A stretch of DNA of 64,000 nucleotides from Halichondria panicea (GCF_963675165.1 NC_087384.1:2614315-2678314); one strand, 5' to 3'. Positions 3,887 to 62,200 are shown, counted from the first letter of the stretch. The notes: generated by a model from the sequence alone, not told the origin. Program-made: numbers and translations.

Positions 3887-3952
<66 letters not shown>

Positions 3953-30731: not shown

Positions 30732-30774
<43 letters not shown>

Positions 30775-33700: not shown

Positions 33701-34353
33701 CTCTCGTATTCGTGGAGCCGTTGCAGGGGTCCAATTTGACGACTTCCACAAGGTACATGTACAGTGCAAATGTATTTTATGTTCACCTACATGCAAGTAC
33801 TGTCAGTAACAGAAATAAATATGGTTCATATACAATGTGGTATAATTATGGTGTGCATTTTGTTTACGTGTATAAAGTCACAATTAATTCAAATGTATGT
33901 GTCTGCAGTTTATTAATGTTGTTTTGTGCATGAGCATTGTAACAACCCTTATCACTTGTGAACAGAACTCTGCCAAAATCATCCGTGCCTCTGTGTTTGG
34001 TCTGGATGAGCGTGGAAAGGTCAAAGGTCGTTTTGTCTTCCCCTCCAACAGCCTAGTCATCACGAGTATTGACATCCAGTCTGTGGAGCCCGTGGATCAG
34101 AGGACAAGGGATGCACTGCAGAAGTCTGTCCAGCTGGCCATTGAGATCACCACCAACTCTCAGGAGGCCACTGCCAGGTATGTACATGTAGAAAAACTGT
34201 TGTGTTTGTGTGCATGTTTGGGAGGGGCGTGTGTGTACCTACTGTATACAATAAAGATTTGTGTGGACCTTGACTGGCGTTACATGTACATGTACATGTA
34301 ACTATAGTTGAGCCTGTGTGTGAAGATTTCATTACCTAAAATTCGTGTACAAT

Positions 34354-34396
<43 letters not shown>

Positions 34397-36017
34397 TACA
34401 TGTAATTAACTTTTGTTGTGATCTTCTCACACCCTTGCAATCCTCTCCACACTTGATTAGACATGAGGCCGAGCGACTGGAGCAGAAGGCCAAGGGTGCT
34501 CTGGAGAGGCAGAAGATCACTGACGAGGCTGAAGCAGAGAAAGCTCGCAAGGAACTGCTAGAGTTGCAGGCTGGCAGTGCTGCCGTGGAGTCCACTGGTC
34601 AAGCCAAGGCCGAGGCTCAATCAAGAGCAGAGGCATCAAAGATCGAAGGAGAAGCTGCTGTGGAGCAGGCCAAACTCAAATCTCAGGCCACCAAGATTGA
34701 AGCTGTAAGAGCTCTGTGACACTTAAAAATTCACAAGATATTATTTGTTTTAAGCTGATCAAGATCATAGTACGTATACAATACGTACTGACATGCACAG
34801 TCATGTAAAACTCGTACTGTACCAAAAGTTCTACCTCCCTCACACATACAGGAATCTGAGCTAGAGCGTCTTACCAGTGCTCGTGAGGCTGAGACAAAGT
34901 ATGTCCGTGAACAGAATGACTTAGAGATCAGCAAGTCCAAAGAGATGGCTGTCATTGAGAGCAAGAAGTTCCAGGAGATGGTGGACGCTATTGGAGCCGA
35001 CACAATTGCAGCCATTGCAACAGCCGGTCCTGAAATGCAGGTGGGTGTGGTCGTCAAAGTCTCTAGACACTTATCTTGAGACCTTTTGTATTGACCTGCA
35101 TGTTGTGATGTATTTACGTGTATCTAACTTAGCCATTATAGATTATACTCAAGTTATGGCTACTTCGAAGGCCATTGCGGTCTCTTCTGACTCGTAGCAA
35201 AATCTCTTGGCTATTCTGCTTGGAACTTAGCTCTGCACCAGAACGCTAGCTATTGGTAGTTGCAAGTAAGAAAACGTCTACAAAGCAAGAACTTGCAGCC
35301 ATATGAAGTTTGAACTTTCGGCATCCTTTTTAACAACAATGGTCATCATTTCACCACTTTTTTATGCATTTGAATGTAGAACGTATATCTTATTTTGTAC
35401 AGTACGTCTGCTAGTATTGGCAGTGCACAGTGTAACTCATGCCGTAAAGCTTTGGTGCCTCTCCACCTCAGCCTGCGGTGCTTTGTTCTTTTAATCTCTG
35501 TGACTGCTGCTATATATTACACCCACTGGAATGAAAAATGTTGCCACCTAAGCTACCTCACCTTGTGGATACAACTAGCTAACAGTCTCAATCAAAAACT
35601 TGTACGTATAGCTTGTAGCCAGTACTAAGCTTCTAGCTCTACGTACTAACTTGTCCATGTCCAAGCAATGAGCCCCACCCATCTGTCTTGCCCTTACCAA
35701 CAAGTGGCTAGCTTTTTTTGGCTGTGTATAGTATAAAGTACACCCTCAAGGCAAGGAGTTTATGAGGAATGCAGAGTTTATGGTAGTTAAACCCCACCCA
35801 GTTGATATGATACAGACCCCATGTGGGTTAGCATAATCCATGATCTCACAGTCATACACTTCCCTCCCCCCATCTTTAGGTGAAGATGCTGCAAGGCCTG
35901 GGTCTCAAGTCCACGCTCATCACTGATGGCTCCAACCCCATCAACCTCTTCAACACGGCCCATGGTCTGTTAGGGGCTCTCGGAGCACCCTCCAGCGGGG
36001 AAGACGTCCCAGAGTGA
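28229..36017 (+). CDS. MVP: Gene span: major vault protein, 14 coding exons, ~852 aa
   Basis: Collinear match to vertebrate MVP from [29 protein letters not shown] to ...[20 protein letters not shown]; all exon junctions in phase. Confidence 0.9.
28598..28711 (+). CDS. MVP: MVP exon 2
   Basis: ORF 28598..28840; [38 protein letters not shown]. Confidence 0.8.
28888..29092 (+). CDS. MVP: MVP exon 3
   Basis: ORF 28888..29118; ...[10 protein letters not shown]. Confidence 0.85.
29161..29929. mobile_element. Non-autonomous DNA transposon/MITE (~770 bp) with perfect ~68-bp terminal inverted repeats, in MVP intron 3
   Basis: 29161-29228 GTGTTACATTAGCCTCGATTCCCGGCCGCTTGAACAAGGCGGCCTGGTATACCTTGTATGCGCATGCG is the exact reverse complement of 29862-29929; no coding capacity. 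Confidence 0.8.
30002..30228 (+). CDS. MVP: MVP exon 4
   Basis: ORF 30025..30291; [39 protein letters not shown]... Confidence 0.85.
30727..30772 (+). repeat. (CA)23 microsatellite that abuts the MVP exon 5 acceptor
   Basis: acacac...acAG|AATGCT. Confidence 0.9.
30773..30898 (+). CDS. MVP: MVP exon 5
   Basis: ORF 30650..30913 frame; [42 protein letters not shown]; the acceptor lies at the 3' end of a (CA)n tract. Confidence 0.8.
31137..31373 (+). CDS. MVP: MVP exon 6
   Basis: ORF 31035..31391 frame; [48 protein letters not shown]... Confidence 0.85.
31613..31762 (+). CDS. MVP: MVP exon 7
   Basis: ORF 31625..31906 frame; [50 protein letters not shown]. Confidence 0.85.
32731..32860 (+). 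CDS. MVP: MVP exon 8
   Basis: ORF 32701..32925 frame; [43 protein letters not shown]. Confidence 0.85.
33128..33431 (+). CDS. MVP: MVP exon 9
   Basis: ORF 33166..33435 frame; ...[29 protein letters not shown]...[12 protein letters not shown]. Confidence 0.85.
33617..33752 (+). CDS. MVP: MVP exon 10
   Basis: [45 protein letters not shown]. Confidence 0.8.
33966..34177 (+). CDS. MVP: MVP exon 11
   Basis: ORF 33897..34301 frame; [70 protein letters not shown]. Confidence 0.85.
34359..34392 (+). repeat. (GT)17 microsatellite in MVP intron 11
   Basis: Direct. Confidence 0.9.
34461..34704 (+). CDS. MVP: MVP exon 12 (coiled-coil cap-helix region)
   Basis: ORF 34345..34719 frame; [46 protein letters not shown]... 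Confidence 0.85.
34852..35040 (+). CDS. MVP: MVP exon 13
   Basis: [63 protein letters not shown]. Confidence 0.8.
35880..36017 (+). CDS. MVP: MVP terminal exon ([48 protein letters not shown] stop)
   Basis: ctttAG acceptor; stop 36015-36017. Confidence 0.8.
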
Positions 36018-36666
36018 TTGTCTTAGTTACAGATATTTAGAATGAAACTCCGAGATTGTTAGAAATTTTGTCTAGCACCCAATAGTGAACAAAATTATTT
36101 TGAGCCCTCTAGTATTTTTATTAAAGTGAACATTTAATATGCAGACACAAAATGGGTATAAGCGTGTGGGGCGTAAGTTGAATCATGGTTGAATAGAATT
36201 GTAGTATAATAGTAATAGTAATACAGCAATTTTCAGAGTTCTAGCGTCGGACAGAGGAATTAAGTACATCTGTGTGAGACAAGTTGGTTTTGTCCACTGC
36301 ACTATAGGGTCATACAGTTGAGATATTATACCCACTTGACCTCATCATGCACCCAGAAGTGTCCTTAATTTATTAAGAGATTATACCATACGATACGTTA
36401 CCTCAAATTATGTGTTGATGACTTGGTGAGTAGTAGCGGTCTTTAATTGTATTGGGAACAGATTAATGTTGGAAAATGCGAGTGGACCACATACGTATCA
36501 TCTCTGGTACGTACAAGGCATTTTGTCCTGCACTATTTAATGTTAGAGTTTGTTATAAGAGTTTCCACTGTACCCGTAAAATTATATGATTGTACATGTG
36601 TACCTCATAGTAATGAACAAGATAATCATGCATGCAGTGACATAGAATACAGACAAAGAAACACAT

Positions 36667-37062
36667 TTAAACAGCAGCTAACAATGAACTCAAGTCCCAG
36701 TTCTCAAGGTCAGCTTCACTGAGGGCAGGTTCGTTGCATGGATACAGAACATCATTAAAGTTTGTTTCTGTCAGAAAATCCATTGAGTCACTATCTCCAT
36801 GAAAACCGATCACGTTAGGGCTTGGTATGTTATTGTCTGTGAAAGTGCTTAGTGTTTCAGCAAGTAGAGTGTCACTGTAGTCCAGTGGTAGTGTCACTTC
36901 TTTAGTGGGTTCCAGTTGGAATTGGCTGCACCCCACCATTGAGGGAGTCTCAAGAGCTGTGTGTTGCTGGGAGGATCCATCCTGTCCAACATCAGGAGTT
37001 CGTCCAATTGGGGAAGAACTGGGAAATCCTCCGTCTTGAAGAAATTGAGCCAGTAGCTCATA
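36667..37062 (-). CDS. XBP1: XBP1 exon 3 (C-terminal, acidic transactivation-like region specific to the spliced form; ends ...SEADLENWDLSSLLAAV, TAA stop)
   Basis: ORF 36667..36939; ctttgtAG acceptor anchored by ORF 36894..37100. Confidence 0.75.
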   Translation of the reverse strand, partial: YELLAQFLQDGGFPSSSPIGRTPDVGQDGSSQQHTALETPSMVGCSQFQLEPTKEVTLPLDYSDTLLAETLSTFTDNNIPSPNVIGFHGDSDSMDFLTETNFNDVLYPCNEPALSEADLENWDLSSLLAAV

Positions 37063-38143
37063 CTACAAAGAAAATACAGCACAATTATGAGACACACCAA
37101 CTACAGTAAGTGCGACGTGTATACTTGTTTACTTAACAGGGGAGTTTAAACCCACATGAGTACGAGCCCTTTAGTTATAATTATATGAACGCAACGCACC
37201 AGAGTATGAAACATGCCCTTACCTGAGCATCATCCAGACAGGCAAGAGGTTGGCCCTTGGGAAGTGTTTCTGCTGCAGAGAAACAACACCAGGTGCTGCA
37301 GACCTAAATGGGGTCTCCTTCGGGCTTTCCCTCTTGACAAGTCCTGTGACAATGTCAGTTTGAATGGAGTCGGCTAGACATAGCTCTAGCTGCTTTTTTT
37401 CGGATGTTAGAATCGTAGTTCCTTGTTTGAGGTTTTGGTTTTCGGCTTGTAATTGGCGATTTTGTCGCTCTAGAATGGCCACTTTCTTCTCCAGGTCGTC
37501 AATGTAGCTCTTCTTTCTGTCTCTGGCATTCTGAGCAGCAACTCGATTCATCATTTTCCTACAGAAATAACACAATAAGTAGCAGTGTTTAATATCGGAC
37601 CAAATACCAGCCGTATGGTGGTTATTATTTTCTTATTGTAGAGCATCATCCAAAAATTAAAGCGCAATAATTATAGTTCTATGTCACCAATCTGAGCAGT
37701 GCGAATATGATACGAAAACTGACAACGAAAATTATCCTCTATAAAGGTCATGGCTTACAAATCGAGGGAGGTTATTTTCGAATACTAAACCACAAAGAAA
37801 TAATTATAGTCAAAGAAACCGACCTTTTCTCTCTCTTTTCTTTTTCTGTCAACTCTGTACTTCCAGTTCTCTTTCTTTTCCTAGAGTTTGCATCAGGTGA
37901 TCCAACCTCACTCTCCTCGCTACCGCTCAGTGCTGAGTAGAGACTGTCCTTTGACGGGGAGCATGGTGGACTCTGCTCACTTTGAACAGTAACAATATCT
38001 TGCTTCTGAGGAGACACGACGGCACATGGGACCTTCAAGCTCTTGCTCAACAACTGAAGACCGAGTAGAAGTAGTTTCTTCTTGTCGGGACCGGGAGCCA
38101 TCGGCCTCGGTTGTAGTGTGGCGAGTGGCTTGGCTGTTTCCAT
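36667..38143 (-). CDS. XBP1: Gene span: X-box binding protein 1 (bZIP, IRE1 target), 3 conventional exons plus an unconventional 23-nt intron
   Basis: bZIP signature RKMMNRVAAQNARDRKKSYIDDLEKKVAILERQNRQLQAENQNLK (compare XBP1 RKLKNRVAAQTARDRKK); twin CUG|CAGC sites 23 nt apart. Confidence 0.85.
37223..37558 (-). CDS. XBP1: XBP1 exon 2 (bZIP). The unspliced frame stops at 37219 (XBP1u); after the 23-nt intron is removed the frame continues to the GTAAGG donor at 37222
   Basis: ORF 37219..37575 anchor; ttctgtAG acceptor. Confidence 0.8.
37276..37298 (-). other. XBP1: Unconventional IRE1-type XBP1 intron (23 nt; transcript sense cagcacctggtgttgtttctctg), flanked by tCUG|CAGCa and tCUG|CAGCa
   Basis: Both cleavage sites fit CNG|CNGC. 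Removing the 23 nt shifts the frame by +1, so the bZIP exon reads ...SAAETLPKGQPLACLDDAQ into the conventional donor and the 132-codon C-terminal exon. Confidence 0.8.
37824..38143 (-). CDS. XBP1: XBP1 exon 1 (ATG is the complement of 38141-38143)
   Basis: ORF 37772..38143; ends ...KRKRTGSTELTEKEKREK + ag; GTCGGT donor. Confidence 0.75.
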
Positions 38144-38494
38144 GTCTTTTTAGCACCACTCGAGCGAAAAGTTTTAGATTATCACGTAGCTAGCTATCAC
38201 TTCATCTTTTTTATGATCTTTCCGAATGACACGTACGCCAATGAAACAACTAGAAGATGGAAGATGATGAAACCTGGAACTGCGGTATTATTAGCCATAA
38301 TTAGGTCACAATCAACCATTACATCACTGTGCAAAAGATGTGGGTCAATGTGATTGGCTGGGCTGAATGTGGGTTATGTCCACCCACATTCATTGATAGT
38401 TACTGGTCATTGTGGTCAAACACAAACCACAAGATGATGTCATACAACTAATTAAAATTCCACTAATCCCCAAGCTAGCTAGCAGCTAGACACA
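38144..38494. promoter_or_regulatory. Putative bidirectional promoter between XBP1 (-) and the D-glutamate cyclase-like gene (+)
   Basis: 350 bp between the divergent ATGs; inference only. Confidence 0.3.
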
Positions 38495-38805
38495 ATGTCA
38501 TCCATAATGCAAGTAGATCTACCAGAGGATACTTTTCGACCTTACATTTCACCCAAACGTCCAGATGACTCCTTCAATATGAAGCCGTTAGAAGCAAGAG
38601 CACTGTTCCGAACGAATGACTACACAGGTTTCACCTCTGGTTTCTGCGATGGATACACTCAGTTCAACATCATTATTATTTCTAGTGAATTTGCTGATGA
38701 TTTTGAGACATTTTGCAGCCAAAACTCAGGTGCATTTCCTGTATTATATCGTAGTAAACCAGGTGAAGTTGGAGCCCCTCCTATTGCTGAGGACTCTAAC
38801 GTCAG
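38495..38805 (+). CDS. D-glutamate cyclase-like exon 1 (ATG 38495)
   Basis: ORF 38495..38818; GTATAT donor. Confidence 0.65.
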
Positions 38806-40450
38806 GTATATCATTTAAAAAATACAACAGTCACACATTGTTCAATATACACATGCTTTTTTGTTTTTTTTCTGCAGGACTGATCTCCCTTGTTATACAA
38901 TCCGGAAGAATGGAATCAGAGTAGCTGAAGCTCCAGATTTGAGCCGATTTACACCAGTTTGGGACTACTTAGTGACTTTCTACATTGGATGCAGCACCAC
39001 ATTTGATTTCGCCTTAATAAAGAATGGTGTTGATGTTCCTAATGTCCTTGACATTCCTGGCTATAAAACTAATGTTTGCTGTTCGTCCGTTGGTCCTTTT
39101 CAAGGAGTAAAAATGACGGTTTCAATGCGTACCATAGCAAAACATCAGCTAGAAAAAGCTTTCATGATATCAAATCAATACCCAGACTACCATGGAGCCC
39201 CTATTCACATAGGTGATCCTACTCGAATTGGAATAAGTGGTGTAACTGTACCTGATGGATATGTAGCTACATTTTGGGCTTGTGGAATGACAGTTGAAGA
39301 TGTAATTTTGATAGCAAGTAAGTCTGTTGTTATGTGCTCTCGTCCTATTACTCAGAGCTTAGTGCTGTCACATGATCTCCAGCTTATAAAAGTAGTCACA
39401 TGTCCATGCTTTAAACTAAAGCTAGAGATCATAATTATGATCATTATATAAATACTTTAAATTAGCCAAAATCACGTCTTTTAATGCTGGTGCATTCGGA
39501 TGGACTCTTGGTTACGTTAACCTCGAGACCAGCCCTAGCACACAGATTGAAACACTTAATCTTGGCTAGGTGTGTTAACTCACATAATGTGTTAATGTGA
39601 CGATCATTTTTCATAATTTACAGAACCAGAGCTTGCATTCTCTCATTATCCTGGTGCGATGTTTATTGGTGACATTAAAAGAGAACCAACCAGTTTAGGT
39701 GATGCTGTGAAGATTATTAAACTCAACAAAGCCGGCTGTGAGTACTTTGCTTCTGTTATAAATCAAAACTCAATAGCTGTATTTGAAGGCATTCAGAGAG
39801 CCTTGGGGATAAAGCCTGTCAATGTACAAGTCAATTCATCCCCTCTTTTGGAAGTAACCCTTAAACTATCTCATGCTAACAAGGTGGTATTAGCATACAT
39901 TCCAAAACATTCTTGTCAACATATTGATGTGCTAGGTATAATGGTCTTTTGTCAGGCTTTGCTCATTCTCAGGAAAGGTGTCACTCTTGTGGTCAAAAAA
40001 GCAGATAAAAACCTTTTTGATATTGCTATTCAACACATGGTTGAGACATTCCATGTTGATACTCCCACCATTGTAACAGTATCCCAGAATGTGACCATAG
40101 AAGATAACATTCCTGTGTTTGATTGCCTACTAATGACATCTCAGAATTGCTATGATGCTGTCAAAGGAATACTTGATATTGCTCAAAAAAACTCTCACAC
40201 CAGTGTCATAACACTCAATAACTATCATTGCAAAGCCACTGAAATTGAGCCAGACATAATTGTGACTGAAAACTTAGTGAACAGTGCGTATGCTCTAGCA
40301 GGAGGATTGTATGTCGCCTCTACCTCTCCTTACCACTGGAGATACAAGAACTATTCCATCAATTCACATCAACAACCTCAATTCAGCGTGGATGATTTCA
40401 TACCTACCAATGATCAGGTTAGTGTTTGTTTTAAATTATGTCATGCATAA
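38495..40450 (+). CDS. Gene span: D-glutamate cyclase-like protein (DUF1445/UPF0317 putative hydro-lyase family) with a C-terminal extra domain; at least 3 exons
   Basis: ATFWACGMTVEDV and HIGDPTRIGI motifs typical of DUF1445; exons 38495-38805, 38878-39317, 39624-40417 (or read-through to the stop at 40450); possible small exon 4 at 40464-40607. Confidence 0.6.
38878..39317 (+). CDS. D-glutamate cyclase-like exon 2 (DUF1445 core)
   Basis: ORF 38861..39451 frame; tctgcAG acceptor, GTAAGT donor. Confidence 0.65.
39624..40417 (+). CDS. D-glutamate cyclase-like exon 3 (second, DUF4392-like domain)
   Basis: ORF 39659..40450 frame; tttacAG acceptor; optional GTTAGT donor at 40418. Confidence 0.6.
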
Positions 40451-41118
40451 TTTTGTCTCACAGTCACAATCACTATGGAAGATGATACTGCCAAAAGGAA
40501 GCTCTGGCTCAGAAGAATTACCTAACTTGTGTCCTGTATCTGAACTCCGTAGTCTATTGAACTGTAGTCTATTGAACTGTAGTCTATCAATGTATGCTGA
40601 TTTGTGATATTTTGGGGGGGGGGTACGTTGGTTGGTTATGCTGGCACAGTTTTTGGTGAGAATTATGGTGGGTATACTCATCAATTGGCATGATAATAAA
40701 ATTATGAGACTAAAAGTTAATTTTAGTGCAGAGTCATTAAGTATAATTATGATCACAAATAAGACTTATAAGGGTATGGAGTGGGTGGTTGTGGGTTTTT
40801 TTATACATTTTCACAAAAAGAGACCCGCTTGTTAGGGGGCCACTAAAAGAGAAATACCGGAAGTGAAATTAAATAATGGGCGTGGCAATAGGAGTGGCGC
40901 AGCGGGGTCTAATTTGCTAGCGGGTTCTGTACCAAATAAATAATGCAGCCATCAACAGCCAGAGCCACAGCACTGCAGTGTGTGTACTTTGTCTATGCAA
41001 GTGAGTGCCAACACTGCTGCTGCTGATATCACACCAAGTGTCTAGATATGGATGACAAAAATATGAGAGTCTTTCAAAGTCTGACCGAGCCTGCATGGTG
41101 CTGTAATCACTGAACTGA

Positions 41119-42470
41119 ATGCTACTCGGATGCACTACCTTATATAGGGACACTACCACCACATTATCTCCGAGCACATCAATGGATGCAACATCACCTA
41201 CCCACCATCTCTCCACAACTCTCAACTCCTCCTCAAACAGCGTCAACTATTCACTCCATTCCACAAAGTCAGGCATATTGTTTAATGCTAGGAGTGTTGC
41301 AAACAAACTACGAGATCTTCACCACGCAAGAGAAAACATTGTATCGCTGTCACAGAAACACACAGATACAAAACTAATGGTCCCCATGGTTTGCCAAACC
41401 AAAGTGAAATCACTCCCGATATCAAACCCTACTGGAAAGCTCGTGGTGACCTTACGATGGTACACTTTTGCTTTACGACCAACGAATGTAGTCCCAAAAG
41501 CACTGCAAAGGCAGACCCTACAAAAGATTCACACGGGACATCAAGGAATTCAACGATGTCGTCTCCGTGCCAAACTCTCTATTTGGTGGCCAGGAATATC
41601 AAAAACCATCAACGACATGGTTAAGCAATGTTCAACATGTTCGAAACACTTTAAACCAAGGATGATACCAACACCACTTCCTGACTACCCGTGGCAAAAA
41701 GTATCATCTGACCTATTTCAACTCGATGGTGCACAATATATTGTAGTTGTCGACTATTACTCGTTAAACTGCCAACAACTACCTCCAGACAAATCATTGA
41801 AGTTCTGAAGAGAATATTTTCTCGTCATGGAATTCCGGAAACCCTAGTGAGCGACAATGGACCTCAGTACTCATCTCGAGAGTTTCAAGATTTCGCAAGT
41901 TCCTACCAATTCTGCCACTTGACAAGCAGTCCTCACTATGCACAGAGCAACGGACATGCAGAGAGAGCAGTGAAGACGGTGAAGAAACTGTTGCGAGAAG
42001 CAGAAGACGGCCTTACTAAGTTATAGGTCAACTCCTTTCCATTGGTGCGGGCTGATGGGGACGAGCTAACATGCCTCTTCAGAAAGACTTGCTTATCCCA
42101 GACTGGAAATACCTGAACCAGTTTCACAAAAGGAGACAAAAGAAAGATTTGATTGCCGCCACAGGACCCAGTCACTCCCAGCACTCCCTGACGAAACAGA
42201 AGTGTGGGTTACTACGGGAAACCAACCGATACCTGGACAAATTGTGACTTCTACAACTACCCCTCGATCTTATGTTGTAAGTACACCCAGTGGAGAAATT
42301 AGGAGAAACAGGAGTCATCTCAACCCAATACCTCACTCCGATAACAGGACCGAAGAACCTGACCCGATTACAACTACCAGGGTGATTCAAACCAGATCCG
42401 GAACTGGGACAGTTATTCACCCACCAGAGAGACATCCCAGAGAAAGGGGGATGTGGAATGTGAACTAATT
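41119..42470 (+). pseudogene. Degenerate LTR-retrotransposon pol fragment (integrase: HHCC zinc finger + rve DDE core), frameshifted with internal stops
   Basis: LQKIHTGHQGIQRCRLRAKLSIWWPGISKTINDMVKQCSTCSK ... ETLVSDNGPQYSSREFQDFASSYQFCHLTSSPHYAQSNGHAERAVKTVKKLL spread over three frames. Confidence 0.8.
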
Positions 42471-43144
42471 GTATCATGTATTTAGTAGAGTATTCTAGAA
42501 TGTTCTGGTAGATTGTTTGTACTATGCTAGTTGTTGTTAGATAGATCTAGAACCTTCTAGGAACTGTTTTGGTGTTTGTATAAATACTCTTGTGTTGTTA
42601 CAATGATGAGTCTTTATGTCTAAAAGTCAAACAACAACAAATCTACACGATACTACAATTACTACACCATTTTCAAATACCACAGACGGTCAGAGACCAA
42701 CAGCATCAATAACAATCTGTACAGATACATTTCTCTTTTAGTGTGAACCTGCAGACCTCACACTAAAAGAGAAATTTACACTTAGGGTGTTTTGCATGTT
42801 CAGGCACTGTGTTACACACATCTACATCATTGTTGCACTGTTTGAAAGTACCACAGAGACCAGCAGCAACAGTAACTCTAAAGAGAAAAACTACAATTCT
42901 TTTTTAGTGTGAGGTCCCCGCGGTTTACACTATAGGTAGCTTTACAGGTTTGTTGCTGTCTCGGTATACTTTCAAACAGTGTAGTGATGTATATAGACCC
43001 ATGCATGTCATATATATTAAGTATATACATGTATATATAAATTATAAGCTCATGGAAAAACCAGTGACACTATGCACTCCCAGTTTTTTTTGCAGCCTGA
43101 GCTACATCTACATCTAGTGATCTAGCTCATGATTGATCCATATA

Positions 43145-43860
43145 GTTTACAGCTGTTTGCATAGACCTTGCAAAATACTAAATCAGCTCACTGCATTACC
43201 ACAAAACCACAAAATCACCATACAATGTTGCTATGCAAACAATATGCAGTCCTGAGCAATGATTGTTTCTAGAACTTGTATAACGGGTACTTTTTGAGTA
43301 GACCCTTGAAAAATACCTGCTGTATAAGGTGGTATAAATTATATCAAGAGTAGATGCTTTATCTACTCTTGGTGGCATGGAAACTCACATAATTATGGTG
43401 AGGCTTGAAGTTTCAGGCTGAAGAGTACGAAGTACCTTAAACACTAACAGATCACAAAATATTGTTTGGTGCTAATCTAGTAGAGAAATATGTTCGGACT
43501 TGATGGTCAAAACCGGTATACCGCAGTGAGCAAGTTAGTAGGCTCTTTAGCGTAAACATTTTTCGTACAGCACAAGTCTCAGCATAAGGCGTTGGTAGAC
43601 CATTCTCTACTATGACTCTCCATGTAGTCTAATTTCTTGAAGTCATGCACCATTGATGAATGTGAATTATATATATAACTGTTAAAACAGGGGTGTATAT
43701 GTACACCCCAAAATGGGTACCACATACGCTTTAAAAACTACCCCCTAGGGTGTAAACTACATGCTCAATATTTACACCTTTAAGGTGTATATATCTCTGT
43801 ATAGGGTGTACTCAATTACACCTCTATAGGGTGTATATAGTATGCATAAAACATGCATTC
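43145..43860. repeat. Left arm of a large internal inverted repeat (unique ~110 bp + ~23-bp GGGTGTAAAC-type tandem array)
   Basis: Reverse complement of 47441-47545 (tacagctgtttgcatagaccttgcaaaatactaaatca...) and of the array at 47191-47400. Confidence 0.65.
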
Positions 43861-45668
43861 ACCATTCAAATTGATCACAGCTGTATCAAGTTAAAACACA
43901 TCCACAAAAGTATAGCAGCAAAGAAACAAAACATCATAGCAGCACTAAAATGAGATTATAATTATACATGTGCCAAAGGGTTCAATTTTGTTCGTTGAGT
44001 CCAAAGAATACACTTAGCTCGCACGTTGGCTCTTGTTCAACATCACATAGAAAATACAGTCTGTACTGGTCTGGCACAAAGATCGTCTGAATTCTGCACA
44101 GAAAACAAAACACCAAGTCACAAGCATACAGTACATGGAGAATGTTAATTTTTACCGAACAAACGTTTGACGCATTCACATAATTATTATAAGAGCAACA
44201 CACAACCTTAAGGATCTACCTTATATGCATTCGTACATGTACAAAATAGATAAGTCTTCAAAAACTCTTTAATTATTTGGATTGACGGAACACCTACATG
44301 CGCATACATAGAAAAGTACAGTCAGCTATTTTGTAAAAGCCAAATCGAAGCTAACCTTGATATCATCTGAAGAACCCTCGCTATCAATTTTTTACCTTGT
44401 CGCCATCTCCAACTTAGAATATGCAATAATCCATGAGTCCCAGTTCTCCATTAATGATCGATTGGACACTCACATCTTTTTCAATACTGACGATTCTCTT
44501 GAACTCGATTCATGAATAGGCCTGCATAGAGGAATTAGATGTGTACAGATCAGATAAACTTGCTAACGACAGGTAAGAATAGTCGAAGTCATAGAAGTTT
44601 AGAACCTACCACTTCGTGAAGTTTCAAAGAAGGAAAATTTATTCATAAGATCTGAGACCGAGGGCTGTGCTGTCTTTCTTCTTTCAAAATATGTCAGTTC
44701 TGTAATGATATGATATAGATTTAAACAATTGTAGCAACATAAATCTATTAACATACTTTGTCTGATGATGTCCCATTCTCTAGGAAGTTGGTTAGCAACT
44801 TGTTCACTAAAGCTGTTGTCCATAAAAGGATGTTACTGGATACTTGAGAACCCAGGGATGAATAGCTAGCTACCAGTCAGAGGACTGGTTAGTATTAATA
44901 CACGTGCTCAGAGGTGTGAATCACACCTTATGTGTCTCCTAAAAAACGCACACCTCAATTAATAATTATGGGCGGGGGGGGGGGGGGCTGTAAATTCTAT
45001 GTGACTGAAGTTGATGAAGCCCTAGCTAGCTAGCTCTAGTCTTGGACATGCATGAGAGCTCTTTATGTTTGGAAAGCTGATGGACATTACTATATTTGTC
45101 CTCAACTCAAATCACTTGACACAGTAGAGTACGAGTAGACTACAACCATCACAGTAGTTTCCACTGTTTATACATTGTAGGAACTCAGCACTCACTCTTT
45201 TCTTTTGTACCTAACCATAATTATGTTAGAATTACCAGAAAGTATTAGTACGCTATGTATCGTTCCAAAACATATACTTTTTAGCTCAATATGATGTGTT
45301 TTATACTTGATTTATTATTTTTCTCTGTATCAAATGAATTTCTTCCTTGAACTTTAATTAGACTGTACTGCAATCAATAAAGTACAGTGTAGTAAAGGCA
45401 AACTGGTACTGGAGTTTGCAGAATCTTTGCAACACATGAATAAAAGTGTTGAGCACTGTGGTTCCTTATGTGGGAAATGCTCATACATTTAAGTAGTAAA
45501 ACAGACCACAGTGTGTACACAAAATCCATATAAGGAACGGGTAACGCTCTACGCTTTTACTGGTGTGTTGCAAAGACTCTGCAAACTCCAGTAGTATATA
45601 ATGATGCACTCTTTATATGCTACACCCCATGCTATTGTGTAGTTTACACCCTTATGCTATTAGTGTAG

Positions 45669-45787
45669 TTAACCCGAGGCGCGTGGGCGGCCACGGGTTA
45701 TAGTAGTCGTTTGGTTTGTTTGTTTGTTTGTTTGTTTGTTAACCCGAGGCGCGTGGGCGGCCACGGGTTATAGTAGTCGTTTGGTTT
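45669..45787. repeat. 2 x 59-bp tandem unit AACCCGAGGCGCGTGGGCGGCCACGGGTTATAGTAGTCGTTTGGTTTG(TTTG)n; a related copy lies at 20823-20893
   Basis: Direct comparison of the three copies. Confidence 0.7.
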
Positions 45788-45805
45788 GTTTGTTTGTTTG
45801 TTTGT

Positions 45806-47200
45806 GACAGGTGAATCTACTCACCTGGATGCCACAGCACTGCGTTTACAGCATGGATAGCCTTTATACAACAAGTTATTAGTTTTAATAGTGGCAGAAT
45901 TTCATGTTAAACCTTTGTTGTCAAATAAAAACGAGCAAAAGCTAAGAAGCTTGTGACTGGGTCTGCTTACCTGGATGCTCTAGCACTGTGTTTACAGCAT
46001 GGGTAGCCTCCACACAACAAGTCAGTACTTCTAATAGTGGCAGCTTTCGGTGTTAAAGCTTCGTTGTCTAATAAAAGCGAGCAAAATGTAGCTTGAACAG
46101 AACTTGCACATGCGTTACTTATAACTGAAGTGATCCTGTACCAGGTCCAGAAACAATGGAACAGGGTCACTAAAGTAGAAAGCTTGCTTTAGCTGACTGG
46201 GATCCAGCAGGACCTGGAGCCATACTTCTCTGAGACTCCAGGCTTCTCTTTGCTGTGATCCTAATCCACAGTGCATATATCTATAGTACTACTACCTGTT
46301 CTCAAATGTTTCAGCATGCCTCCAGTCTGGTTTAGTTTTATTGCTCCTGAGTTGCTGTGCAAGTCATGCATGCATGATGATGATAACAACATCACTATAA
46401 TTATGGCAATGCACTGCATTATATGGTTTCTTTATAATCATGTCACCAGCCGAGGGTTTGCACTTTAGTGCTCTAGTTTGTTTGTGACAGATGAATCTAC
46501 TCAACTGGATGCCACAACACTGCGTTTACAGCATGGATAGCCTTCATACAACAAGTTATTAATTTTAATAGTGGCAGAATTTCATGTTAAACCTTCGTTG
46601 TCAAATAAAAACGAGCAAAAGCTAAGAAGCTTGTGACTGGGTCTGCTTACCTGGATGCTCTAGCACTGCGTTTACAGCATGGGTAGCCTCCACACAACAA
46701 GCCAGTACTTCTAATAGTGGCAGCTTTCGGTGTTAAAGCTTTGTTGTCTAATAAAAGCGAGCAAAATGTAGCTTGAACAGAACTTGCACATGCGTTACTT
46801 ATAACTGAAGTGATCCTGTACCAGGTCCAGAAACAATGGAACAGGGTCACTAAAGTAGAAAGCTGTATATACCAGGAACAATGGGACAGGGTCACTAAAG
46901 TAGAAAGCTTGCTTTAGCTGACAGGGATCCATGCAGGACCTGGAGCCGTACTTCTCTGAGACTCCAGGCTTCTTTGCTGTGATCCTAATCCAATTTATCT
47001 ATAGTACTACTACCTGTTCTCAAATGTTTCAGCATGCCTCCAGTCTGGTTTAGTTTTATTGCTCCTGAGTTGCTGTGCAAGTCATGCATGATGATGATAG
47101 CAACATCACTATATGCACTGCATTATATCAGTCTTCTGGTTTCTTTATAATCATGTCACCAGCCGAGGGTTTGCACTTTAGTGCTCGTTTACATTGCTAT
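45806..47200. repeat. Tandem duplication (2 x ~680 bp) with an internal ~130-bp sub-repeat
   Basis: 45806-46484 and 46485-47200 are near-identical apart from small indels. Confidence 0.8.
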
Positions 47201-47545
47201 TGTAGTTTACACCCTTACCTATTAGTGTAGGCTATTGTAGTTTACACCCTTATGTTACTATTGTAGTTTACACCCTTAAGCTATTAGTGTAGTTTACACC
47301 CCATGCTATTGTAGTTTACACCCTATATGCTATGATATTTACACTCCCTTTTGTTTACTCCCCAAACCAGGTCTTATTTAAACCCTAGTACATGGTGTAT
47401 ACACCCCTGTTTTAACACAGCATGAATGTACCCAATGCTATTTGTTTGCATAGCAACATTGTATGGTGGTTTTGTGGTAATGCAGTGAATGATTTAGTAT
47501 TTTGCAAGGTCTATGCAAACAGCTGTACTGACAAATGCCAGAGAA
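47191..47545. repeat. Right arm of the internal inverted repeat (tandem ~23-bp CTATTGTAGTTTACACCCTTA units, then the unique segment)
   Basis: See the left arm at 43145-43860. Confidence 0.65.
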
Positions 47546-47992
47546 AACTTTGGGCACTGGAAGTAAACAAAGGATTAGCTACAATCTAACCGGCAGGACA
47601 GAGTAGCATCTGATTGTCTAAAGGATCTTCTTGAGACTGCATGGCGTGCATGCATGCATATGTATGTAAGCTAGCCTGCCATGCAGGTACCGTAGTGACA
47701 CTAGAAGTGAAAGAAACTCCTTGAACAGAAGTCTAACCAGAATAAAACCAGTCACTGGCAGCATAGATAGAGTAGCTCTATCTATGCTGGCAGAAAGCTG
47801 TAATTAGTGTTAATGTGGTACCCGCCAGCAAATTGGACCCCGCTAGGCCACGCCCATTATTTGATTTCACTTCCGGTATTTCTCTTTTTTTAGTGTTGCG
47901 AGAAGTCTCAGATTGCACACGTGATCTAAAAGTTGCATTTTTGTGGTTAAAATTAATTATGTCAATTTGTTACTATGTGCGGGCACCCTTAA

Positions 47993-48263
47993 GGCCACTC
48001 CAAGTGACACTCTGGTTTCTGGTCCTGAAGTTTTTCTAATTGCATGCGGGCGGGCGGCTTTTCTCATTATGTCATTATCAATTTCACCTAATGAACTCAT
48101 TATTTGCAAATGAATATCATTATCACACTATTTTGTACCACGTGGACCATTATGCGCATGCGTAGTAGAAATAATGGGATAGAAATCCAATAATGAGATA
48201 GAAATCCAAGAATAAAATCTGATGCGGGCGGTGGACCAGAAACAGAGTATCACTTGGAGTGGC
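47993..48263. mobile_element. MITE-like element with 32-bp TIRs (GGCCACTCCAAGTGACACTCTGGTTTCTGGTCC)
   Basis: Left TIR 47993-48025, right TIR 48232-48263 (reverse complement with 2 mismatches); ~205-bp AT-rich internal region. Confidence 0.6.
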
Positions 48264-48396
48264 CTAACTTGAAGGAAGAAATACAAATAGAGAAAGAAAG
48301 AAGGACCTCTCGAAAAACTAGTAGGCCACTCAAAAAGACACCTTCTTTTTTCTTTGTCTCTTCTTCCTAATTATAGTGTCAAAGGAAAAAAGATAA

Positions 48397-49320
48397 ATGG
48401 CTCTAGTCATCAGAAATGCAAAATTTGAAGATTTGCAGTTTCCCATTCGATTTGTTGTAGAAAATAAATGGAGGCCATTTGGTCCAGGAGATTACTCATG
48501 TGCTTACAGCTACGATCCAAAAGGCTTCTTTGTTGGTGAGCTTGATGGAGAAGTAATCAGTCATATCATGGTTATCTCCTATCCCTCGCATTCTACTCAC
48601 TGTGGGTCACTGATAATACGAAAAGAGTATAGACACAAAGGCTACGCGGCACTGATGCTGAAACATCTTTCAAAGACTATAGATCAAACATTTACAATTG
48701 GACTTGACTCACTACCGTACATGATTCCGTTCTTCGAATCTTTTGGTTTTTGTACTGTTTGGGAAAATTCTATCGCCATGTTAAGCTTTGAGAAGATCAT
48801 TTCAAAACTAGACCATCTGGAATTCAAATCAGAAGATTTATTACTAAAACCTATACGAACAGTGGACATCAAAATGCTAGTACAGTACGACGCATCTGTT
48901 TTTGGCTGCAAGAGACACACCCTAGTGGAAAATTGGGTGAATATTCCAGGTAGTATGGGCTGGGTGGCTTTTGATTGTGACAGAGGAATTGTTGGGTACA
49001 CTCTTGTCAGGCCCATTATTATGAATGGGGGGAGTGAAATTGGAATGAACATGGCCCCTCTCTATGCTGAAAACAATCAAGCAGCTGGTGTATTGATGAA
49101 AATAGCAGCAGAGACCTGTCTTGTTAATGAAGCGGTCGCAGCAAAAAAATTTCTACTTATTTATGCCAGAGGTGCGGATCACAGCAAGAATGCATCAGCG
49201 ATATTTGACCAAGTGGAAGCCGAATACCTACCTTTCGCGACCCGAATGTACTCAAAAGGAGCCCCAATAAATGGCTCTTTGAACAAGATCTACGGGATCA
49301 TGCACCCTACATTCGATTAA
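48397..49320 (+). CDS. GNAT-family N-acetyltransferase (N-terminal GNAT fold + C-terminal YitH-like domain), intronless, 307 aa
   Basis: ORF 48397..49320; acetyl-CoA binding motif IRKEYRHKGYAALMLKHL. Confidence 0.6.
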   Translation: MALVIRNAKFEDLQFPIRFVVENKWRPFGPGDYSCAYSYDPKGFFVGELDGEVISHIMVISYPSHSTHCGSLIIRKEYRHKGYAALMLKHLSKTIDQTFTIGLDSLPYMIPFFESFGFCTVWENSIAMLSFEKIISKLDHLEFKSEDLLLKPIRTVDIKMLVQYDASVFGCKRHTLVENWVNIPGSMGWVAFDCDRGIVGYTLVRPIIMNGGSEIGMNMAPLYAENNQAAGVLMKIAAETCLVNEAVAAKKFLLIYARGADHSKNASAIFDQVEAEYLPFATRMYSKGAPINGSLNKIYGIMHPTFD

Positions 49321-49440: not shown

Positions 49441-50223
49441 TTAGTTCTGAATCAGTTTACGAACAACAAACACAAAAGCTGTTGCATAATCTCGGTACGG
49501 CATTTTAGTGTTCTCTAACAGTTCACAATTGCATATTGATATCTGCTTTTTCCATTCTTCAGCTGTCAGGTCGAACAATTCTTTGTTGACTGTTGCAATG
49601 AAGAAACAGCCCGGCTTGAGAACATGGAGGATGTTTGGCAAACATTCCGGGCCACACTGTCCAATCCCAAACACACCAGCACAGATAACACTGTCAAAAC
49701 TATTGGCTTCGTATGGCAGTTCCTCTTTCAGGTTGATGACTTGCAGCTCGGTGTAAATTCCTTTTGATTTTGCTACCTTCAACATCTCATTGCTAATGTC
49801 ACCACCATAAAGCTGAATTGCTTGTGGAGTTGATACAGAATTTAAAAGCAATTCACCAGCTAGGCCAGTTCCGCATCCTGTATCAAGAAGTTTGTGCTTC
49901 TTTCCAACATCATTTAAATGAAAGCTCTGCCATTTTTGAACAACACTCGTGTATCCAGAGTAGTTCATAGAATTTACATCAACTTCATAGCTGCTTGCCC
50001 ACTGGTCGTAGGCAATTGATCCACCACCTTCTGCAATGAGTGCAACAAAACCTTTTGCTCTCTCAGAGAAAGGTAACTCGGCCATAGCCCGATAAATTAG
50101 TCCTATCAAGAGCCTTGGAATTTTGATTGCAGCGGTTAACGTGTGAAGATTAAAGGTGTCTAAGTGCCTCGAAAAATGCCGTAAGATGCGGTAATCTATA
50201 GCTGTGAAACCGCACAGCTGCAC
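49441..50223 (-). CDS. Class I SAM-dependent methyltransferase, METTL27/WBSCR27-like, intronless; the true start is probably the internal Met (complement of ~50083-50085, MAELPFSERAKG)
   Basis: ORF 49441..50223; motif I LLDTGCGTGLAGELL, YDQWASSYEVDV, FDSVICAGVFGIGQCGPECLPNILHVLKPGCFFIATV, parallel to human METTL27. The first 46 codons of the ORF are encoded by a hairpin arm and are probably not translated. Confidence 0.6.
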   Translation of the reverse strand: MQLCGFTAIDYRILRHFSRHLDTFNLHTLTAAIKIPRLLIGLIYRAMAELPFSERAKGFVALIAEGGGSIAYDQWASSYEVDVNSMNYSGYTSVVQKWQSFHLNDVGKKHKLLDTGCGTGLAGELLLNSVSTPQAIQLYGGDISNEMLKVAKSKGIYTELQVINLKEELPYEANSFDSVICAGVFGIGQCGPECLPNILHVLKPGCFFIATVNKELFDLTAEEWKKQISICNCELLENTKMPYRDYATAFVFVVRKLIQN

Positions 50224-50313
50224 CTGCTGTGCTGCACCTGTGCATGCGGTTTAGTGCCTAGTTAATTAGTCACTAGCCTAAGGAGCACAGCAGGTGCAGC
50301 TGTGCGGTTTCAC
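50204..50313. promoter_or_regulatory. Perfect 30-bp inverted repeat (GTGAAACCGCACAGCTGCACCTGCTGTGCT ... AGCACAGCAGGTGCAGCTGTGCGGTTTCAC) with a 50-nt loop, just 5' of the methyltransferase gene
   Basis: Exact reverse-complement arms at 50204-50233 and 50284-50313. Confidence 0.5.
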
Positions 50314-51727
50314 GTGCTAAAGAATACGTACCGTGTAGGCATAAATTAATTAATTAGGCAAGTCCTGACTAGTACAGAGATAGTAGTGTCTTGAGCTAGA
50401 TAATTATCGGCTATGGTAGCATCAATGAGCAACAGTGAACTATGGCGACTAGGAATCAACAGTACTCTGACACAGCTTTTGGCCGCAATGCTTTATTCTA
50501 TTAGTGTCATTAGCTATCTGCCCTCCATTCACAGATTTGTCACTAATCCCACTGAAGAGAACCTCAATGGAACAAGTCACTTTAAGGTTTATTATGAAGG
50601 TTTTATGGTGGCCGGCCTGCCACAAAATTAATGTAGTCTAGTGCTGGGTATAGGTACGATACAAAGGGGGAGACATCTAATTTCTGACCCCCCTGTCTTG
50701 CAGATCTTGAGAGCTATTTTATTTACCTATTCACTAACTACTATACTATGGTCAATAGGTTGCATGTAGGCAAAAAATTCTGGTAAATGAGACAGGGGGG
50801 GTATTACGAGATACCATTACATTTATCGCTAATTGGCTGCTCTATAGCATATCTTATATTGAAATACAGTTATTCTGTCTATAAAAACAGTTACTCCTTT
50901 TTTAACAGATACCTAGACGTAAGTGAATTTTACATGAGAAGAGAACTACCAATACCTCTACACAAAAACTGTGCACAAAGTAACGTGACCTCCTGTCAAT
51001 TGCACGTGAGCAACTCGCAATTGATGAAATTTGCGCAAGCTTGTGCATATACATTATACGCAACGCACAGAATTCGTTAACAGTGAGTAAAGAATGCAAG
51101 TGAAGAGGAGCAACTCAAAATTGTCTCTACTTAGATTTTGTGAAGAAATCATTGTCTATCAGTGTGCGGTGAGTAGCTCTGAACGTTGAACGCGAACGTG
51201 CAGATCGATGTCATTGTTCAATTAATTACCACACCCCTAAAACGTCATGCTTAACATTTACTAGGAGATTACTACAATTATACCCTATCATGTGCAAGTC
51301 ATGTTACTTTGTGCACAGTTTTTGTGTAGAGGTATCGGTATAGATAGACACTCTTCTCTTCTTATAATAGTCTTGATTTACTACTGGCACCCACTTAAAT
51401 TTGGTCATTAAAATGTTTCTCCAGTATACTTACACAAACTATGGTGGTATCTCTGTCAACACATGCACAACTTTAAATTTCTTTGGAAAAAATACTATAG
51501 AGAGAGGTACATGCAGTAATGCAGTAGCGGATAATTTTCGGGGGGATAAAATATTCGTGGTTCAGCAATATTAAGACATTTCGTGGGTAATATTTTCATG
51601 GTTGCTTAGCTTTACGGTATTAGAATAGCTGAAGTTTTAAACAGTGCTCTCATAATTGGTTCTGTCTCACAATTAATAATTATACCCTCTTCTATCCAAC
51701 TGGCTTAGTGAAATTATATAACTGCAG

Positions 51728-60566: not shown

Positions 60567-61059
60567 ACAAAGGTCATTATAATTATGTCTACCCTCAAAC
60601 GCAGAGAGGAGGCTTACTCGGGCGGCTTGACTGGTATACAGCAGAGCCCTCAAGAGCTGGAGCAAGCTGTCTATGACAAGTCCAAGACTAGAGTGAGTGT
60701 TCACAATGTATGTTAGTATGCTAATAGTCCTTTAAGGTGTTCTCTGTGCCTTTAGTGCCATTTTGGTGAGTACTTCCCATCAGTTTGTTTCAATAATCAA
60801 CTGTATTATTATACGCCTCCCGAAAATCCTGGTGGGCGTGGCACGGTAAGGGTTAATGTAGCTCTCTGTTTATAAAACACAAAATTTGAGCATGTTCATA
60901 TCTAGGGCCGTTTGATCCTGTTTTGTTTGCAGCAGTGTTTCATCTAGGATAAAAAGTTTGGGGAGAGGGATTTGGGCGTGCTTTAAAATGTTTGACTAAG
61001 TTGAGATAATTACATTAACCAATGTGACAAAGTCATTATTCTACTAATAATAATGAAAG

Positions 61060-62034
61060 CACTGCAGGTGCTGATGCCTCGGTGGAGATGGCAAAGCTAT
61101 ATAACATATAATAGCTTTTATACACATGATGAACATTTTTGCAATTTTGCTGCATGTAAACTCAAGGAGTGGGTAATGATCGACCATGATTGTTGTTAAA
61201 AACGATCGATGCCAAAGTTTAAGTCTAAAATTAATGGCTGCATCAGCAGAGCCTTGCAGCTCTCTTCTCACTCTTGCAGCTACCAATAGCTAGCGTTCTA
61301 GTGCAGAGCTAACTACTCAGTAGAGTCTGGGGAGGTCGATACGAGCGGACATGTTTCGACGTAAGAGTATTCAATCCTCACGCAAGCTTCAACAGACAAT
61401 CGACCCTAGCCAGCACCTACCGGAAACATAAACTATCAAAAAAGGATGTATGAACGAAGAGTAAGACAAATTGAACATTCGTCCTTTACACCACTTGTCA
61501 TGTCTGCTACTGGAGGCTTGGCCACGGAAGCCACAACCTTTTACAAAAGGCTAGCCGCACGCCTTGCTGACAAATAGGAGCACTCGTACTCATCTACCAT
61601 GGCATGGCTCCGTTGCCGATTGACTTTCTCACTACTGCGTTCCGCCTTACAGTGTATCCACGGAGCTCGTTCCGGCATCGGTCACGCTTTCAAAGCAATG
61701 GACCTCTGAACTGCAAATAGGTTAAACTAATAATTATCATCATTACACTGTATACTTTACCTTTATTTTTAGTACTGCCATCTTATATTTTAAAGGGGAC
61801 ACTCCCCCCCCCCTAAAAAAAACTACTAAGTAGAGTAGTAACACTCGGTAAACAAGTTTGGCTACGTGCTCTTTTGAAAAGGCTGCAATGGCATTCCAAG
61901 TAAGCAAAACAGGCATAACTTGAGAACGAAGCATTATTTTGTAAATCTACGAATGAAAACATGACTAGAAGCCCATATAGAAACTCTTACTTGCGCTTCA
62001 TTGATCGTTGAGCAGCTGTAGCAGTCTACACATA

Positions 62035-62125
<91 letters not shown>

Positions 62126-62200
62126 TACACTGCCATATTATCGGTATACCTCGCTTGCGCATGCGCACCGAGGCATAATTGTTACATAGTCAGATCAGTC
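61060..62200 (+). repeat. (CA)n-tailed repeat family, copy split by a ~490-bp insertion
   Basis: Collinear with copy 1 except for the inserted block 61321-61812; (CA)45 at 62033-62122. Confidence 0.75.
61321..61812 (+). mobile_element. 5'-truncated retroelement insertion (ends ...cccccccccTAAAAAAA) flanked by a 14-16-bp target-site duplication (AACTACTMAGTAGAGT)
   Basis: TSD copies at 61305-61320 and 61813-61830; absent from the other repeat copies; the internal sequence has a short open frame (MSATGGLATEATTFYKRLAARLADK). Confidence 0.6.

Follow-up and report, generated by a model that had tools for sequence, protein, structure and literature searches.

Between a D-glutamate-cyclase-like gene and a GNAT gene of the sponge Halichondria panicea there is an island of about 7 kb in which inverted repeats lie one pair within another. 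Its coordinates are those of the window, the whole stretch of 64,000 nucleotides that was analysed (GCF_963675165.1 NC_087384.1:2614315-2678314), which is H. panicea DNA from a metagenome assembly. The comparison set consisted of the same animal's other haplotype, four further assemblies and two paralogous loci, here called L020 and L021. A preliminary description made from the sequence of the window had pointed to an island of transposable elements (TEs) with inverted repeats in concentric pairs and the pseudogene of a retrotransposon integrase, and this is borne out, with all of the repeats it listed being present at or near the positions it gave, far beyond chance expectation. It is also correct that the island has no intact gene, since its ORFs are short and the Pfam matches are to a broken integrase only. 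Neither Pfam nor the ORFs disclosed a transposase or other domain in the island besides that integrase, and Pfam had no match in any stop-free segment of the otherwise unexplained parts. Rfam and tRNA scans of the island yielded a sub-threshold miRNA match and nothing usable, so that a tRNA-derived SINE is unsupported. A literature search found nothing specific.

The outer arms and the framework they bound

The outer left arm is at 40841-40925 on the plus strand, where it forms the left terminus (beginning CACTAAAAGAGAAATACCGGAAGTG...) of what is referred to below as the framework, and the outer right arm is at 47820-47888 in inverted orientation, lacking 12 bp that all left arms have. The outer inverted pair of the preliminary description is thus real: BLAST aligns 40845-40925 with 47820-47888 over 81 bp at 80% identity (E = 3e-15). 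The actual arm starts are at 40841 and 47888, with CACTAAAAGAGAAAT; CACTAAAAGAG stands at 40841 and its reverse complement ends at 47888, i.e. there are CACTA termini on both ends. The arms have no sub-repeats and, at 85 bp of 7,048 bp, account for about 2% of the length. They are flanked on both alleles by ...GGGGGC and TTGCGA..., with no direct repeat of 2-8 bp that could be a target-site duplication (TSD). A scan of JGI metagenomes, in which the host species is barely represented, gave 0 matches to the outer arm.

In the same genome L020 and L021 share the left arm together with ~550 bp next to it, and internal sequence on the right as well, and the outer framework is therefore a real repeated unit, non-coding and seen at three or more loci. 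Its left body (40926-41385, plus strand) is 91-94% identical to L020 9696-10260 and L021 460-1013, and the point at which the left arm starts is common to L020 (9696) and L021 (460). An ORF start in the left body, from 41181, resembles the N-terminus of the APE endonuclease of non-LTR retrotransposons (homologues P0151-P0153), the motifs typical of that N-terminus being present; in L020 and L021 the ORF runs on to ...GDFNIPSINW. The match to Exo_endo_phos_2 is weak (E = 0.013, below the Pfam cut-off), and no reverse transcriptase (RT) was found in any of the three framework copies. Further in comes a tandem array (42658-42916) of about 1.5 units of ~172 bp, with 3 units in L020 (18467-18896) and 5 in L021 (4365-5140), at whose unit ends the terminal 15-mer is repeated in inverted orientation. 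The remainder consists of a stretch at 42917-43147 (plus strand; 89% identical to L020 19101-19226) and a right body at 47528-47786 (plus strand; 88% identical to L020 19227-19472) that has a palindrome with an 18-bp stem at its end. One candidate for the enzyme of the framework, a P-element-like transposase in L020, was rejected: it belongs to a separate 6-kb element (L020 11302-17295) that is bounded by TIRs of its own, 37-40 bp long, and is missing from L021.

Are the outer arms the two ends of one element? The right arm is found at this locus only, on both alleles. L020 and L021, both possibly truncated, have none, with L020 homology stopping 34 bp before the right arm and L021 being truncated earlier; a candidate right arm in L021 (5811-5838) was ruled out as it gave no alignment. 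Given the restriction of the right arm to this locus and the missing TSD, the arms may be the true framework termini, the two ends of one element, but need not be. In beginning with CACTA and in having their terminal motif repeated internally they are like CACTA/CMC TIR transposons; they are unlike them in having neither a 2-4-bp TSD nor a transposase, in the want of a right arm in the other copies, and in that the left part of the framework resembles the 5′ end of a non-LTR element. This last feature leads to a possible, though not favoured, alternative in which a rearranged non-LTR retrotransposon makes up the framework, with the left arm as its 5′ end and the right arm as the 5′-end remnant of a second, inverted copy. 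The APE-type endonuclease start, a left start common to three copies as in full-length LINE copies, the occurrence in the arms of ACCGGAAGTG and GGGCGTGG, which we take to be promoter-like motifs, and a right arm that is in neither other copy and comes with no TSD would all be accommodated. However, LINE fragments usually keep their 3′ and not their 5′ ends, an unrelated inverted fragment would have to lie 34 bp from the right edge of the framework by coincidence, RT was found in no copy, and the terminal 15-mer is present in the internal array in both orientations in the manner of the binding-site repeats of DNA transposons.

Elements within the framework

The gap in the framework between 41386 and 42657 is occupied by the 3′ part of a Ty3/gypsy pol gene on the plus strand: 1.27 kb with integrase only, in which the last ~350 codons, broken by at least 4 frameshifts, are followed by about 190 bp beyond the stop. 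At its left edge the framework homology breaks off, and at its right edge it picks up again. The integrase has an H2C2 zinc finger and an rve core (PF17921 and PF00665), and in its relatives RT_RNaseH and RVT_1 are found upstream. The fragment is 84% identical at the nucleotide level to L004 2265-3636, with the alignment ending at both edges; the cluster of integrase ORFs has one member. An integrase pseudogene had earlier been placed at 41119-42470 and does exist, but the true span of homology is 41386-42657, and 41119-41385 is part of a different repeat, not gypsy. While the closest relatives are Ty3/gypsy pol genes that also encode protease, RT and RNase H, the fragment differs from such LTR retrotransposons in having no LTR, gag, PR-RT-RH, TSD or flanking direct repeats and in that homology is confined to 41386-42657. 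Ginger DNA transposons, in which an integrase is the element's own transposase, the TIRs are TGT...ACA and the TSD is 4-5 bp, were rejected as a source: the integrase is closest to pol genes that include RT, the other framework copies do not have it, and the ends of the unit are CACTA with no TSD.

The inner inverted pair has a core of 43148-43242 against 47442-47527, about 95 bp nearly identical (about 97% identity) apart from an 8-bp indel (E = 7e-30). It is a genuine pair, but one that belongs to an independent family of miniature elements (MITEs) and not to a 7-kb unit as its arms. The left part of the MITE is at 43148-43679 on the plus strand (TA duplication at 43148-43149, then a TIR of ~95 bp from 43150 beginning CAGCTGTTTGCATAGACC..., and an internal part) and its right part at 47418-47527 in inverted orientation (right TIR at 47442-47525, TA duplication at 47526-47527). 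L020 joins the equivalent of window position 43147 to that of 47526 at a single TA, i.e. it has the paralogous empty site, and L017, an unrelated contig, has a free 640-bp copy with no internal cargo; TA flanks the MITE on both sides in the window and in L017. The parts of the MITE in the window that lie outside the insertion described below sum to 638 bp. With the empty site and the free copy, the core of the inner pair is a ~640-bp Tc1/mariner-type MITE that inserted independently. Like Stowaway-like and Tc1/mariner MITEs it (43150-43679 plus 47418-47525) has a TA target duplication, TIRs starting CAG..., a length of ~640 bp, no ORF and independent copies in two sequence contexts; unlike them it has a long TIR (~95 bp), and its copy in the window has been entered by a 3.7-kb passenger. 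The window and the loci compared with it yielded no autonomous partner that has a DD(E/D) transposase and matching TIRs.

That passenger is a TIR element of 3,738 bp (43680-47417) with perfect 20-bp TIRs, TGTTAAAACAGGGGTGTATA, at 43680-43699 and 47398-47417, and with subterminal motifs GGGTGTAAAC and GTTTACACCC. Its ORFs have no Pfam domain, and neither a TSD nor a second copy was found among the sequences compared. A tandem array had been reported at the end of each inner arm. On the right this holds (period 26, 3.9 copies, 47232-47329), but the left array, of GGTGTA, is degenerate and has GTTTACACCC in exact form just once, enrichment of that motif being a property of the right-arm array only. 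In all, the left degenerate array occupies 43690-43860 and the right one 45621-45670 and 47187-47340, split by a tandem duplication of 680 + 713 bp at 45796-47186 (plus strand). The latter had been correctly described as 2 x 680 bp with sub-repeats: 45796-46473 pairs with 46476-47186, and the sub-repeats are of 139 bp at about 80% identity, the 139-bp unit occurring twice in L016 also. Ahead of the duplication a unit of 70 bp, the head of a dispersed short repeat, is present 2.0 times with 100% identity (45668-45805, plus strand). Its period had been given as 59 bp, which is not upheld, whereas the relative noted in an intron does exist (20830-20897, 78% identical).

The preliminary description had favoured a single foldback or composite DNA transposon, mobile now or once, for the whole 7-kb block, with a captured retrotransposon fragment inside. 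Concentric inverted repeats, the outer framework being found at other loci, and a gypsy piece cut at both ends and lacking LTRs and a TSD, as expected of captured DNA, are what such an element would leave, but it is now very unlikely. When the arms are followed elsewhere the outer framework recurs, at L020 and L021, but without the integrase fragment, the inner pair or the tandem block; for the inner pair there are a separate TA duplication, an empty site and a free small copy, so that the inner arms are to be found, in L017, as an independent copy without the internal content, the very result that the preliminary description had named as refuting it, here borne out for the inner arms; and no mobile unit took the gypsy piece with it, for it fills a framework gap at this locus only. 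Nor is the common allele here one unit of 7 kb: in the allelic contig L005 and others the outer arms enclose only 1.2 kb. The 3.7-kb element has inverted arms with short tandem sub-repeats (the GTTTACACCC arrays), as do FB-like foldback elements; otherwise it is unlike them, its arms being a small share of the element (inner arrays ~150 bp of 3.7 kb, the left one degenerate). The outer pair, too, is unlike foldback elements, in which long arms of tandem sub-repeats take up most of the length, in being without sub-repeats and such a small fraction of the whole; it has no TSD, and a transposase is missing.

Two alleles at the locus

L005, from the same sample, has flanks 98.9-99.3% identical to the window. 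Its collinearity with the window extends to 40964 and resumes at about 47178; the 396 bp in between are private to it. The segment missing from this common 1.2-kb allele thus amounts to 6.2 kb (40965 to about 47186), in whose place are 396 bp of unrelated sequence; when this filler was compared with the island, homology scores were within the range for shuffled sequence. The same short-allele junction is present in assemblies of other individuals, in L007, L008 and L012 on the left and in L019 on the right, and for the long allele there is a single contig. Short-read contigs are continuous through the outer arms and broken at the inner arm and array, which fits a low-copy outer and a multi-copy inner repeat.

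Which allele is derived? All that the short one retains of the two nested TIR elements is their right ends, and the join 40964|40965, continuous in three framework copies, is cut in it. With these half-elements and the cutting of a native join, the common short allele is a derived deletion. The reverse polarity, in which 6.2 kb was copied from another locus into a short ancestor by ectopic gene conversion or by a template switch for which the shared inner arm served as primer, is improbable. It would suit the short allele being the commoner and the long one having been seen once, and the 396 bp of the short allele being absent from the long; the half-elements, however, are not something that insertion can create, and the join is native to the framework family. 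A chimeric path taken by a metagenome assembler through repeats, with the whole island as artefact, is scarcely credible: the long form is indeed in only one, repeat-rich, contig, but paralogous copies that are 79-94% identical are too divergent to confuse long-read assembly, both flanks are about 99% identical to the allelic contig, and the nest is internally coherent (TA duplication, MITE parts summing to 638 bp).

The two alleles, 7 kb and 1.2 kb with the same ends, can also be brought into a more ambitious reading, one that we regard as rather doubtful. The outer arms would be the true termini of an undescribed low-copy family of sponge TIR transposons in which the promoter and the start of the ORF come from a LINE and the terminal 15-mer recurs internally, and the internal deletion with filler would be the outcome of abortive gap repair after excision.

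Order of events and significance

The island is an ordinary dead TE nest, with mobile elements that landed one inside another in the space between two genes; it was probably built stepwise in intergenic H. panicea DNA and probably has no function as a unit. The layering is seen directly, as are the alleles, the empty site and the copies at other loci; the succession of steps and the modes of repair are what we infer. First, a non-coding framework of ~4 kb, with its left end CACTAAAAGAGAAAT..., APE-endonuclease-like ORF start and ~172-bp array repeating the terminal 15-mer, would have come to sit between the D-glutamate-cyclase-like and GNAT genes, at this locus with its first ~80 bp repeated in inverted orientation on the right. 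Its middle would then have been lost and the Ty3/gypsy pol fragment acquired in its place, perhaps by double-strand-break repair with filler DNA, perhaps by insertion followed by deletions. The MITE would next have entered a TA dinucleotide, to be itself entered by the 3.7-kb TIR element with its GTTTACACCC subterminal repeats, within whose array a short dispersed repeat may then have expanded tandemly (70 bp x2, ~700 bp x2). Lastly, in another haplotype lineage, the 6.2-kb deletion with its 396 bp of filler would have given the common allele.

In this the locus is like the TE nests of plant and animal intergenic regions, with elements within elements, an inner one having a target duplication and an empty site, truncated fragments, no coding capacity, and presence/absence and deletion polymorphism; it is unlike them in that its outermost layer is of no recognisable superfamily and has no TSD, and in that its gypsy layer fills a gap.

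The significance beyond annotation is little, and nothing at the island points to a novel type of mobile element or to any function; its repeats probably represent sponge TE families that are unannotated. If the abortive-gap-repair reading were true, it would be evidence of recent DNA-transposon activity in H. panicea. Since the island is directly upstream of the GNAT gene, the alleles differ by 6 kb in promoter-distal sequence. From the 3′ end of the D-glutamate-cyclase-like gene to the 5′ end of the GNAT gene the long allele measures about 7.9 kb and the short one about 1.8 kb. The locus is a clean worked example of the growth of a TE nest and then of a large deletion on one haplotype.

A layered nest

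The island at 40841-47888, between two plus-strand genes, is a layered nest of transposable elements with a later large deletion, rather than one transposon of the foldback or composite type. An exact match to the GNAT ORF on one side of it (48397-49320) is present on ctg15175 (274 kb, 153x) of ENA metagenome assembly ERZ26868619, where the D-Glu_cyclase gene (PF07286) adjoins that ORF. The neighbouring ORFs cluster with RefSeq proteins of Halichondria panicea, and the window is therefore nuclear DNA of this sponge. We detected neither a transposase nor an RNA family nor any other function in the island.

The repeats listed in the preliminary description are all present in the window, with some adjustment of detail. 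The outer arms (40841-40925 and 47820-47888, inverted; an 81-bp alignment at 80% identity, E = 3e-15) surround the inner arms (43148-43242 and 47442-47527, inverted), which are near-identical save for one 8-bp indel, and there is a perfect 20-mer pair at 43680-43699 / 47398-47417. The GTTTACACCC arrays ascribed to both inner arms are a regular 22-26-bp array on the right and only a degenerate version on the left. The short tandem unit, taken as 59 bp, has an actual period of 70 bp x 2.0 and does recur in an intron (relative at 20830-20897, 78%), and the 680/713-bp duplication with 139-bp sub-repeats is as had been described. Within two mismatches the 15-mer CACTAAAAGAGAAAT has 5 sites in the 64 kb, 3 of them exact; four of these five are inside the island, and 0.22 would be expected in the whole window.

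A repeated framework and its Ty3/gypsy fragment

A full HMMER scan with ORF 41119-41400 as query gave three relatives, two of which were traced to contigs: L020 (ctg15252, same sample as ctg15175) and L021 (an H. panicea contig of another assembly). Window 40841-41386 matches L020 9696-10260 (91%) and L021 460-1013 (94%); further, L020 18467-19472 matches window 42644-43142 and 47523-47785, and the L021 match to the right-hand body extends to 43127. Since both sides are matched, the left arm, the adjoining sequence and the right-hand body, including the part deleted in the short allele, are one repeated unit, the ‘framework’. Its start is at the identical base at three loci. Internally it has a tandem array of ~172-bp units, of which the CACTAAAAGAGAAAT ‘MITE-lets’ (42658-42916) are the window's 1.5; L020 has 3 and L021 has 5. 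The framework ORF runs on in L020 and L021 (...DIIAVTETH...FRRDRN...GDFNIPSINW), with motifs of the sort usual towards the N-terminus of APE endonucleases in non-LTR retrotransposons; the Pfam match is weak (E = 0.013), and no RT was found with it in either.

Stitched frames of the integrase remnant gave Integrase_H2C2 and rve. Many of the 1,178 homologues have RT_RNaseH domains, one is from the sponge Ephydatia, and PR-RT-RNaseH-IN are consecutive on the contigs of the two best matches. Because nucleotide similarity to the nearest relative, L004 (84%), is confined to 41386-42657 and stops at both edges, this segment is a doubly truncated Ty3/gypsy pol fragment without LTR or TSD; 41119-41385, earlier counted as integrase, belongs to the framework. 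The fragment's position is exactly the framework's missing middle in the window, in place of which L020 has ~2.2 kb of framework and a separate 6-kb P-element-like transposon absent from L021. The latter (L020 11302-17295), P-element/THAP9-like and nested in the framework copy, has its own 37-40-bp TIRs and encodes the transposase domains TNP-like_RNaseH_N, GBD, RNaseH_C and Tnp_P_element.

Are the outer arms termini? The right one occurs at the window locus only, in both alleles; L020 similarity ends 34 bp short of its position, L021 is truncated earlier, and no TSD was found at the arms. We lean towards the view that the framework ends in these two arms and that the L020 and L021 copies are truncated; a less likely reading makes the right arm a stray piece, inverted, from the 5' end of a LINE-derived unit. 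Under either reading the framework at the window locus is non-coding. Both outer arms (40856-40886 and 47847-47877) contain ACCGGAAGTG and GGGCGTGG, which we take to be putative promoter-like motifs, ETS-like and Sp/KLF-like respectively.

The inner pair and the element inside it

With the inner arm as query, JGI metagenome contigs yielded L017, where a 640-bp element has both arms and a TA either side without any of the window's cargo. In L020 the flanks of the window's inner element are joined directly at one TA (...gatccatacttTActgacaatgcc...), and the window at the equivalent junction reads TA/CAGCTG...CAGCTG/TA; the L020 junction is an empty site and the window copy has a TA duplication, a combination characteristic of Tc1/mariner-type elements. 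The inner pair belongs to a MITE that inserted independently. The proposal of a foldback or composite element with a captured retrotransposon is partly supported: the inverted repeats and integrase remnant behind it are real, and the empty site and free copy of the inner pair go against it.

The window's sequence next to the arms (43150-43679 and 47418-47525) totals 638 bp, agreeing with the free L017 copy, with which it has short internal similarities in common. The remaining 3,738 bp (43680-47417) are therefore most readily explained as another TIR element that went into the MITE. Its limits are the perfect 20-mer and GTTTACACCC motifs, and its right array is split into 45621-45670 and 47187-47340 by a 70-bp / ~700-bp tandem block, the short repeat composing which is also in the intron (20830-21015) and twice in L016. 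Within this element, too, is a lone 48-bp inverted repeat (45407-45593, 88%, 91-bp spacer), perhaps a small hairpin or a MITE, which had no second copy among the sequences compared.

Two alleles and their surroundings

Over 30000-40964 the allelic contig L005 (ctg14779, same sample, 83x) matches the window at 98.9% identity, and from about 47178 onward at 94-99%. Between these flanks 396 private bases, without detectable relatives within the island, replace 6.2 kb, and the outer arms enclose just 1,209 bp. Other individuals' assemblies have the short junction (left in L007, L008 and L012; right in L019). Of the inner structures the short allele keeps only right ends (one CAGCTGTTTGCATAGACC and one TGTTAAAACAGGGGTGTATA), and the join 40964/40965, continuous in three framework family copies, is broken in it. 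Since half-elements arise only by deletion and the native join is broken, the short allele is the derived one, with 6.2 kb deleted and filler DNA in the gap; though derived, it is the commoner among the assemblies seen.

Nearby is a 273-bp MITE (47993-48265) that looks like PIF/Harbinger (Tourist): its TIRs measure 26-34 bp (GGCCACTCCAAGTGACAC...) and its duplication is the 3-bp TAA. It is missing from L005 and L019 (empty site cccTTAACTTG) and a 99% identical copy begins at L020 20314, which together suggest recent activity. Inside it, upstream of GNAT, TGCGCATGCG (48163-48172) is presumably an NRF1-like, putative promoter-like motif. In the 5' part of the minus-strand methyltransferase gene (49441-50223), window 49918-50383 and L005 14122-14726 do not align; L016 has the same gene (99% over 49521-50228) and different downstream DNA, and the members of the methyltransferase cluster have 214, 260, 136 and 114 residues. 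A dispersed family (3436-3994, 61052-62180, 63534-64000 and 20322-20508), with a dinucleotide microsatellite at its end, is 76-94% identical to L020 2995-4269 and L017 3509-4450. Another repeat (50943-51385; inverted ends 50952-50989 / 51298-51340) shares 79% identity with L017 754-1178 and partially matches L006 at ~7280-7390.

The transposable element families of the island are probably undescribed ones of known kinds, and a nest such as they form is ordinary in a eukaryotic genome.
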